The notes: a model not told the origin generated them from the sequence alone. 64,000 nucleotides of DNA from Escherichia coli (GCF_013315695.1 NZ_CP054353.1), one strand, 5' to 3'. Counted from the stretch's first letter, positions 10,181-10,266 are shown. Numbers and translations are program-made.

Positions 10181-10266
10181 ATATCTGATATATCAGCCTG
10201 ATCATTGATTGAAACACTAACCTACAACAATAAGATACATTATTTTTGTCATATCTGATATATTAG
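10181..10266. promoter_or_regulatory. Two copies of the motif atatctgatatat (10181..10193, 10251..10263), the first containing the perfect 12-bp palindrome ctgatatatcag; candidate operator in the divergent promoter region
   Basis: Exact 13-bp direct repeat spaced 70 bp apart between the divergently oriented MFS and GntR genes. Confidence 0.4.

Follow-up and report, generated by a model that had tools for sequence, protein, structure and literature searches.

Paired palindromes in the divergent promoter region of an Escherichia coli island as candidate operators of its GntR/FCD regulator

A stretch of 64,000 nt of Escherichia coli DNA (GCF_013315695.1, NZ_CP054353.1), referred to here in its entirety as the window, carries a 3.7-kb insert of low guanine-plus-cytosine (GC) content between gyrA and ubiG. 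The insert consists of three genes, encoding a dehydratase, a major facilitator superfamily (MFS) transporter and a GntR/FCD regulator, and a short sequence occurs twice in the 236-bp region from which the transporter and regulator genes diverge. What are these two copies, and does the adjacent regulator read them? A preliminary description of the window had taken them for plausible operators through which the regulator controls both its own gene and the operon. Comparisons of sequences across lineages make it very likely that the two sites, designated O1 and O2, are indeed the cognate operators of the divergently encoded regulator of what is a mobile three-gene cassette.

The repeat was first noted as a 13-mer, ATATCTGATATAT, at positions 10181-10193 and 10251-10263, with a perfect 12-bp palindrome at the first copy and with the divergent genes on either side, and all of this was borne out. 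The ATG of the MFS gene is at 10091 on the minus strand and that of the GntR/FCD gene at 10328 on the plus strand; the palindrome, CTGATATATCAG, occupies 10185-10196, and its counterpart in the second copy, CTGATATATTAG at 10255-10266, has one mismatch. A search for further copies found these two as the sole matches in the window, even with one mismatch allowed. Shuffling that preserved dinucleotides gave a mean expectation of 0.03 matches, with two or more in 0 of 100 shuffles. The similarity reaches beyond the 13-mer to 20 nt (TGTTATATCTGATATATCAG at 10177-10196 and TGTCATATCTGATATATTAG at 10247-10266), of which 18 are identical, at a distance of 70 bp from start to start. The best dyad is a 14-mer, TCTGATATATCAGC at 10184-10197 and TCTGATATATTAGA at 10254-10267, each copy differing at one position from TCTGATATATCAGA (13 of 14). 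On this basis the two sites were delimited as follows.

10177-10197, no strand assigned: candidate operator site 1 (O1), comprising the 20-nt copy at 10177-10196, the 14-bp dyad and the perfect 12-bp palindrome.
10247-10267, no strand assigned: candidate operator site 2 (O2), comprising the 20-nt copy at 10247-10266 and the 14-bp dyad TCTGATATATTAGA.

The center of O1, at 10190.5, is located approximately 99 bp upstream of the MFS ATG, and that of O2, at 10260.5, approximately 67 bp upstream of the gntR ATG. The core can be written TCTRATA-TRTYAGA (the hyphen marking the center), a dyad of 14-16 bp with a 5' ATAT extension. The consensus of the six enteric sites is ATRTCTRATATRTYAG, which has no GT/AC at the canonical positions. 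The outer TCT/AGA bases are invariant, while the inner G/C of TCTG...CAGA is better described as R/Y, being replaceable by A/T (L006, L023, L028). Enteric sites keep the extension in the left arm (ATAT-CTGATA), leaving an ATATC box 6-9 nt from the dyad center, and have lost it by decay in the right arm, so that O1 and O2 look like direct repeats of 13 to 20 nt. Because other taxa have perfect palindromes of 16-22 bp, the dyad reading of the preliminary description is nevertheless the correct one. The operator reading that it built on the dyad gains support from the GntR/FCD neighbor, from the conservation footprint and from the presence of the motif beside homologous regulators; it has to be amended in that the probable recognition unit is the 14-16 bp dyad rather than the 13-mer, and in that the canonical GT/AC consensus is not fitted. 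Near-copies of the 14-mer with two mismatches each were seen elsewhere in the window, ACTGATACATCAGA at 16041-16054 (yfaL-ypaB intergenic) and CCTGAAATATCAGA at 19081-19094 (within nrdB by coordinate inference). As further sites, these and other near-matches to the 12-mer or 14-mer (56498 among them) were rejected: they carry 2-3 mismatches, those at 16041 and 19081 are in core-genome DNA, and they were treated as chance.

Close relatives in the protein database comprise three lineages only, E. coli, Salmonella and a third type (L006-L009), the regulator of Salmonella being 87-88% and that of the L006 type 71-72% identical to the E. coli protein. Three partial homologs considered as new lineages (P0010, P0012, P0013) were discarded as Salmonella-type sequences with assembly errors. 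In Salmonella enterica the insert is found at the same gyrA/ubiG site, where STM2273 is the dehydratase, STM2274 the MFS transporter and STM2275 the regulator. In L006 (positions 1-10696) the same three-gene cassette instead sits between yhjD (BrkB family) and rcdB, between flanks from an enterobacterium that match E. coli at approximately 81% identity; transfer has thus involved the regulator, the operators and the operon as one unit.

Both sites are recognizable in all three lineages. Site 1 reads TGTTATATCTGATATATCAG in E. coli, TGTCATATCTGATATATCAG in Salmonella and TGTTATGTCTAATATGTCAG in L006, and site 2 reads TGTCATATCTGATATATTAG, TCTTATATCTGATATATTAG and ATTGATATCTAATATATTAG, respectively. 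The 14-bp dyad of O1, TCTGATATATCAGC, is shared with Salmonella and is TCTAATATGTCAGA in L006, and site 2 of L006 is the perfect palindrome TCTAATATATTAGA, in which the inner G/C is replaced by A/T. Scored in 16-nt windows, three-way identity reaches 0.75 at O1 and 0.88 at O2, the regional maximum, and falls to 0.06-0.38 in the spacer between the sites, while the distance from O1 to O2 is exactly 70 bp in every lineage. The constant spacing suggests either a fixed promoter geometry or cooperation of two bound dimers. Four E. coli haplotypes differ at 12 intergenic positions, all outside the two 20-nt sites, within which about two would be expected by chance; this pattern is consistent with constraint and suggestive only, being weak when taken alone.

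More distant relatives were retrieved by protein, independently of the motif, in a full HMMER search of 1.84 billion representatives. The next relatives of the regulator are at most 43% identical to it; four were placed on contigs, and all four are linked to dehydratases of the mandelate racemase (MR) family. Five loci (L029-L033) showed no motif in the DNA initially examined, which left out the regions upstream of the operons; when the region around the first operon gene was re-examined, the motif of L101 and split copies in L103 were found. At L101, whose regulator is 38% identical and adjoins MFS and MR genes, a perfect ATCTGATATATCAGAT occurs approximately 180 bp upstream of the MFS-dehydratase operon. 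At L108 (36% identical; 63% GC), TCTGATATATCAAA and TCTAATATACCAGG are situated 101 bp apart in the region between the regulator gene and divergent genes for a TRAP transporter and an MR-family dehydratase.

Searches that began from the motif led to related regulators as well. A scan of 100,044 species genomes for the two-site pattern turned up 13 loci, several of them plainly chance matches or low-complexity DNA (such as the tandem repeats L016 and L022). In Bacillus sp. MRMR6 (L023), a GntR/FCD gene (phmmer 2e-18 against the E. coli regulator) is directly preceded by two copies of AATATCTGATATATTAGATAAT at a distance of 77 bp from each other, both of which contain the 17-nt core of O2, ATATCTGATATATTAGA, unchanged. 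A perfect 22-bp palindrome, GATATCTGATATATCAGATATC, stands directly upstream of an aldolase and MR-dehydratase operon of C. symbiosum (5e-47 to the E. coli dehydratase); in Paenibacillus filicis the same 22-mer overlaps a TTGACA-17-TATGAT promoter, and in a metagenome-assembled genome of the Enterococcaceae the motif follows a TTGACT-17-TATAAT promoter and precedes the ribosome-binding site of a gene for a 565-aa protein. A repressor-type position is seen at the Firmicute loci L017 and L028, where a good sigma-70-type promoter is overlapped or directly followed by the site. The two-site scan of species genomes returned no Salmonella, and a scan of species-representative contigs with a regulator protein pattern gave 39 pattern matches, none of them confirmed; evidently the species representatives lack the island or do not match it, and the scan does not amount to a taxonomic census.

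Metagenome contigs yielded 67 loci with the 20-bp palindrome ATATCTGATATATCAGATAT. A GntR/FCD homolog lies at most 258 bp away in 13 of the 67, with the site at the 5' end of the gene in 11 of these 13, and among loci with at least 900 bp on both sides the proportion with such a neighbor is 9/29. When the site was placed at random within the GntR-containing loci, the mean was 4.0 as against the 13 observed, a value reached in 0 of 20,000 permutations. Adjacency was seen in 7 of 22 contigs of at least 50% GC and in 0 of 17 below 35% GC, the cases including contigs of 57-69% GC; the matches below 35% GC probably arose by chance. In their NCBIfam profile all the regulators found by motif agree with the one from E. 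coli, the PhnR(Burkholderia)-type model being best and below its cut-off, and most of the motif-linked regulators have in common the recognition helix SKTP(L/I/V)R(D/E)A. At L037, L040, L043, L056 and L063 the palindrome separates a GntR/FCD gene from a divergent operon that was read by eye, from N-terminal sequence, as a glycyl-radical enzyme with its activase, and at L061 and L065 it adjoins genes read by eye as xsc-like thiamine diphosphate (ThDP) enzymes. It seems that regulators of very diverse pathways share one type of operator.

The protein presumed to bind O1 and O2, and the genes that they would control, are the following.

10328-11026, plus strand: GntR/FCD (FadR-subfamily) regulator of 232 aa, ortholog of STM2275, the presumed O1/O2-binding protein.
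8763-10091, minus strand: MFS transporter of the anion:cation symporter type (acid-sugar), ortholog of STM2274, first gene of the operon.
7548-8750, minus strand: mandelate racemase/enolase-superfamily acid-sugar dehydratase, ortholog of STM2273, second gene of the operon.

The regulator contains a GntR winged helix-turn-helix (wHTH) domain at residues 22-83 (Pfam, 1.5e-13) and a full-length FCD domain at 93-216 (1.2e-19); its best NCBIfam model is the PhnR(Burkholderia)-type one, below cut-off, and NanR rather than DgoR is second-best. In all five E. coli records inspected, PGAP labels the gene 'frameshifted' from 10284. This label was rejected as an annotation artifact of an over-long Salmonella open reading frame (ORF), as the ORF that starts at 10328 contains complete GntR and FCD domains. 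The long Salmonella model has 294 aa, and what separates it from the E. coli gene is an indel of 2 bp that precedes the conserved start; the ATG at 10328 and the N-terminus that follows align with those of the ortholog in L006 and of the 231-aa protein annotated for SL1344. Because the 63-aa N-terminal extension of the long model is not conserved, the start is shared and the indel is upstream of it, the regulator was taken as intact. A natural regulator-null allele is found in one Salmonella lineage, L010/L011 (protein P0006), where an in-frame deletion of 63 aa removes most of the wHTH domain. Within the first codons of the regulator gene is a palindrome resembling the CRP consensus (CGTGACTTAAGTCACA, 10346-10361), which is conserved at the DNA level in the three lineages, in coding sequence, and which has as its equivalent in the L006 ortholog a perfect TGTGA-N6-TCACA; as a real CRP site it was rejected, with 4 matches in the window against 1.9 expected, which is not above chance.

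Of 5,426 complete E. coli genomes, 140 carry the insert in full. Its dehydratase is nearly identical to the proteins of PDB entries 2GL5 and 4E6M, each deposited as 'putative dehydratase protein', and has galactonate dehydratase as its top NCBIfam match (6.6e-74), at 249 bits and below the cut-off of 311. The transporter matches the NCBIfam D-galactonate transporter subfamily (4e-80), likewise below the curated cut-off (270 vs 395). In the present strain the MFS gene is a pseudogene, labeled 'frameshifted' by PGAP, with a run of six A residues at 10005-10010 where intact alleles such as that of CFSAN061771 have seven and encode a protein of 442 aa; the operon under O1/O2 is therefore partly dead in this strain. 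STM2274 is also tabulated as a pseudogene of S. Gallinarum in a paper on AT-homopolymer (AT 8+mer) loci (PMC8538453).

How O1 and O2 would act depends on where transcription starts, for which the following candidates were recognized, all of them by sequence and position.

10256-10264, plus strand: candidate -10 element of gntR inside O2, TG-a-TATATT, resembling an extended -10 and put forward on the conservation of its position.
10167-10162 (-35, TTGAAC) and 10145-10140 (-10, TAATAT), minus strand: candidate promoter of the MFS-dehydratase operon, with a 16-nt spacer.
10182-10177 (-35, ATAACA, overlapping the left flank of O1) and 10159-10154 (-10), minus strand: alternative candidate MFS promoter, in E. 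coli and Salmonella.

Of the -10-like hexamers on the plus strand, TATATT at 10259-10264 alone keeps its alignment position in all three lineages; the preceding TG (10256-10257) is present in E. coli and Salmonella only. The first MFS candidate keeps its position in the three lineages, as TTGAAT-16-TAACAT in Salmonella and TTGTCT-16-TAACAT in L006, and the block at 10138-10157 has a three-way identity of 0.75. A standard promoter scan reports a single pair, TTGAAA-16-TAAGAT at 10209-10236 on the plus strand, which would put O2 at approximately +10 to +23.

Two further features of the MFS side deserve mention. A block in the MFS 5' leader at 10103-10126 (TTTGTGCTTCAATGAATAAGAGTA, with the small palindrome TTCAATGAA) is conserved like the operators, with a three-way identity of 0.81. 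A perfect 10-nt inverted repeat (TCACCTTTTG at 10097-10106, CAAAAGGTGA at 10165-10174) would pair the MFS Shine-Dalgarno (SD) region with the candidate -35 sequence; an anti-SD hairpin could form only if transcription started upstream of 10174. This repeat is weakly conserved in Salmonella and would be outside the transcript of the best candidate promoter.

In the mechanism that we propose, a dimer of the regulator would bind each 14-16 bp dyad through its wHTH domains. At O2, which would cover the -10 element of the regulator's own promoter, the bound dimer may occlude that promoter and so bring about autorepression; at O1, on or just upstream of the transporter-dehydratase -35 element, it would repress the operon, and cooperation between the two sites at their fixed distance of 70 bp may reinforce repression. 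Binding of a sugar-acid substrate, or of its 2-keto-3-deoxy product, to the metal-containing FCD domain would then release the DNA and induce the operon, the effector presumably being the transported sugar acid or its dehydration product. Effector-relieved repression combined with autoregulation is the most likely mode of action by analogy, given the repressor-type positions of the Firmicute sites, the frequency of double sites in the FadR subfamily and the precedents of DgoR and Atu1419 that are discussed below.

Several observations weigh against the assignment of O1 and O2 to the regulator, or against parts of it. No published binding or expression experiment was found for this regulator in any organism, and the literature on STM2273-75 yielded no functional study, only incidental mentions. 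A Salmonella map of transcription start sites (TSS) has no TSS in the regulator/MFS intergenic region. The candidate promoters match consensus weakly (8/12), that of the MFS operon being below the threshold of the standard scan, and the center of O1 would be near -57 of the best-conserved MFS candidate, which is unusual for a simple repressor. Among the distant relatives, L103 (43% identical) has split or partial copies of the motif only, and L110 has no site upstream of the regulator gene, the region upstream of its operon being outside the DNA examined. Most of the metagenome matches to the palindrome are without an adjacent GntR gene, and some of them are chance occurrences, as follows from the count of 0/17 below 35% GC. 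Finally, O1 and O2 are unlike FadR-subfamily operators in that they lack a GT/AC pair (TKGT-N2-3-ACMA) and have their inner G/C 6 nt apart rather than 4-5, and the motif is absent from the examined part of a published compilation of GntR sites (PMC4494728).

The position of O1 bears most directly on the first alternative, according to which the same regulator is an activator, or a dual regulator, at the transporter-dehydratase promoter, with O1 as the upstream site, and represses only its own gene at O2. With its center near -57, O1 is upstream of the -35 sequence of the sole minus-strand promoter element conserved in three lineages; the weakness of that element (8/12) is often a property of activator-dependent promoters, and some FCD regulators do activate, CitO being an instance (PMC4746285). 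The Firmicute palindromes argue the other way, being located over or just downstream of strong -35/-10 pairs, as do the alternative E. coli/Salmonella promoter, whose -35 overlaps O1, and the closest characterized analogs, DgoR and Atu1419, which are repressors. Activation of the operon is accordingly judged unlikely, and repression from both sites is preferred.

The form of the sites raises a second alternative, that recognition is NanR-like and directed at direct repeats of approximately 9 bp (TATRTCWGA, two per site), the dyad being a by-product of an AT-rich unit. Tandem 9-mers can be read in O1 (TATATCTGA and TATATCAGC) and in O2 (CATATCTGA and TATATTAGA), and in site 1 of L006 an A-to-G change is found in both 9-mers (TATGTCTAA, TATGTCAGA) while the 12-bp palindrome is down to 4 of 6 pairs; moreover, the FCD regulator NanR binds direct TGGTATAW repeats and gives the second-best NCBIfam model for the island protein. 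Outside the enterics the element is instead a perfect palindrome of 16-22 bp (L017, L019, L101 and the 67 metagenome loci), site 2 of L006 is a perfect palindrome as well (TCTAATATATTAGA), and the further ATATC box on the 5' side is in keeping with the 'additional half-sites 7-12 nt from the centre' that are described for palindromic GntR sites (PMC4494728). A NanR-type direct-repeat operator was rejected as the main model, contradicted as it is by perfect palindromes at homologous sites elsewhere, and it strikes us as decidedly improbable; recognition of the dyad by the regulator dimer remains the preferred model.

In a third explanation, which is plausible for an AT-rich island, silencing by a nucleoid protein of the host, H-NS or another, would nucleate at the two sites with high affinity, and they would not be sites of the island's own regulator. 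The insert and its intergenic region have 33-42% GC against approximately 52% in the flanks, and the lack of an intergenic TSS in the Salmonella map would agree with silencing. The high-affinity H-NS 10-mer is reported to read TCGATATATT or tCGATAAATT (Bouffartigues 2007; Lang 2007), and TGATATATT, in this AT-rich DNA, matches the 10-mer at 8 of 10 positions. The same palindrome stands beside GntR/FCD genes in Firmicutes and in contigs of 57-69% GC, to which silencing of AT-rich islands of the H-NS type does not apply, for which reason H-NS is not a general explanation, and conservation is confined to 16-20 nt with an invariant TCT...AG, unlike a general AT-tract. As a replacement for specific regulation, nucleoid silencing is thus more improbable still, even if the two could coexist. 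In a region of 32-34% GC that is rich in TA repeats, one might also suspect an accident of AT-rich, low-complexity sequence, or a local duplication that has persisted neutrally and has no function; some pattern matches elsewhere are low-complexity or chance (the tandem repeats of L016 and L022), and the contigs below 35% GC lack the GntR gene. This reading is all but excluded by the shuffles (0.03 expected matches) and by a footprint in which both copies and their spacing have outlasted a divergence that scrambled the DNA between them, and the motif recurs with homologous regulators that were retrieved independently of it.

Nothing is unusual in a local regulator having two operators in a divergent promoter region; the non-canonical palindrome common to distant FCD regulators is the more interesting by-product. 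A full-text search for the motif strings returned PCR primers only, and no description of the regulator, operator or motif was found in the searchable literature, RegPrecise-type resources being outside the search. It is conceivable, and we put it forward tentatively as somewhat less probable than its opposite, that ATATCTGATA-TATCAGATAT (core TCTRATATATYAGA) represents an undescribed, non-canonical operator class, almost unchanged across phyla, of a large, uncharacterized FCD-type GntR clade whose members are approximately 25-40% identical to one another and control unrelated pathways. These pathways would, on the same tentative footing, include enolase-superfamily sugar-acid dehydratases, glycyl-radical enzyme operons and xsc-like ThDP enzymes, with the E. 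coli/Salmonella island as one recently transferred member. If this were true, regulons could be predicted from the motif and effector biosensors built with it, both for hundreds of orphan regulators and for STM2273 (PDB 2GL5), a dehydratase with a solved structure but an orphan in function. The motif departs from the textbook GT/AC core of GntR sites and recurs all the same beside related regulators in Firmicutes, high-GC bacteria and enterics, and it could seed regulon prediction in the poorly annotated FCD clade. For the accessory cassette of E. coli and Salmonella itself, the analysis supplies a concrete and testable regulatory model, in which the regulator-operator pair offers a practical handle on the substrate of a structurally solved dehydratase.

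Comparison with characterized systems places the island among the sugar-acid modules governed by FCD regulators. The consensus of the FadR subfamily is NyGTM-N0-1-KACNy, with TKGT/ACMA boxes, and A/T-rich palindromes and double sites are common in divergons that contain a transcription factor gene; NanR and BioR are published exceptions to the TKGT/ACMA core (PMC4494728). O1 and O2 resemble such operators in being A/T-rich palindromes, in their location in the regulator's own divergon, in their duplication and in having an extra, weaker half-site, for which the ATATC box is the candidate (PMC4494728). NanR, also an FCD regulator, shares a repeat unit of approximately 8-9 bp with hexamers of the GATATA/GGTATA kind; its operator consists of direct TGGTATAW repeats, whereas the island element is a true palindrome in most taxa and lacks three tandem repeats.

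The closest solved structure, by PDB sequence matches to the regulator, is that of UxaR (3sxy/3fms, approximately 1e-17), and Atu1419 is also among the matches (6z74, 6.4e-7). The FCD protein UxaR (TM0439), from Thermotoga maritima, regulates sugar-acid (galacturonate/glucuronate) genes and has a 17-nt motif, present in several copies, that it binds with an in vitro Kd of 40-80 nM (PMC3750489); its regulon extends over many operons, while the island is a three-gene cassette. Atu1419, an FCD/VanR-type repressor of Agrobacterium fabrum, has two identical short palindromes in its own divergent region, one of them between the -35 and -10 elements of the regulator promoter, and either is bound alone, more strongly with both present (PMC7797058). 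It differs in its palindrome, ATGTATACAT, in which the canonical G is contacted by Arg45, and in the distance between sites, 190 bp, which are looped by a tetramer (PMC7797058); the 70 bp between O1 and O2 are short for a loop.

The nearest functional parallel is DgoR of E. coli, which is an autoregulated repressor of D-galactonate catabolism with two inverted repeats at the promoter (PMC7674646). DgoR likewise combines GntR and FCD domains, has a metal-containing effector pocket, and controls DgoT, a transporter of the acid-sugar MFS type, together with the enolase-superfamily dehydratase DgoD (PMC7674646). The island has no kinase or aldolase gene corresponding to dgoK and dgoA, and because its dehydratase and transporter score below the curated cut-offs they are not orthologs of the dgo proteins. 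DgoR operators belong to the TKGT-N3-ACMA class and are closely spaced, in contrast to TCTRATA-TRTYAGA at 70 bp. By analogy, the module is best regarded as functionally DgoR-like, with an FCD protein as its putative repressor, an acid-sugar MFS transporter, an enolase-superfamily dehydratase and paired candidate operators.

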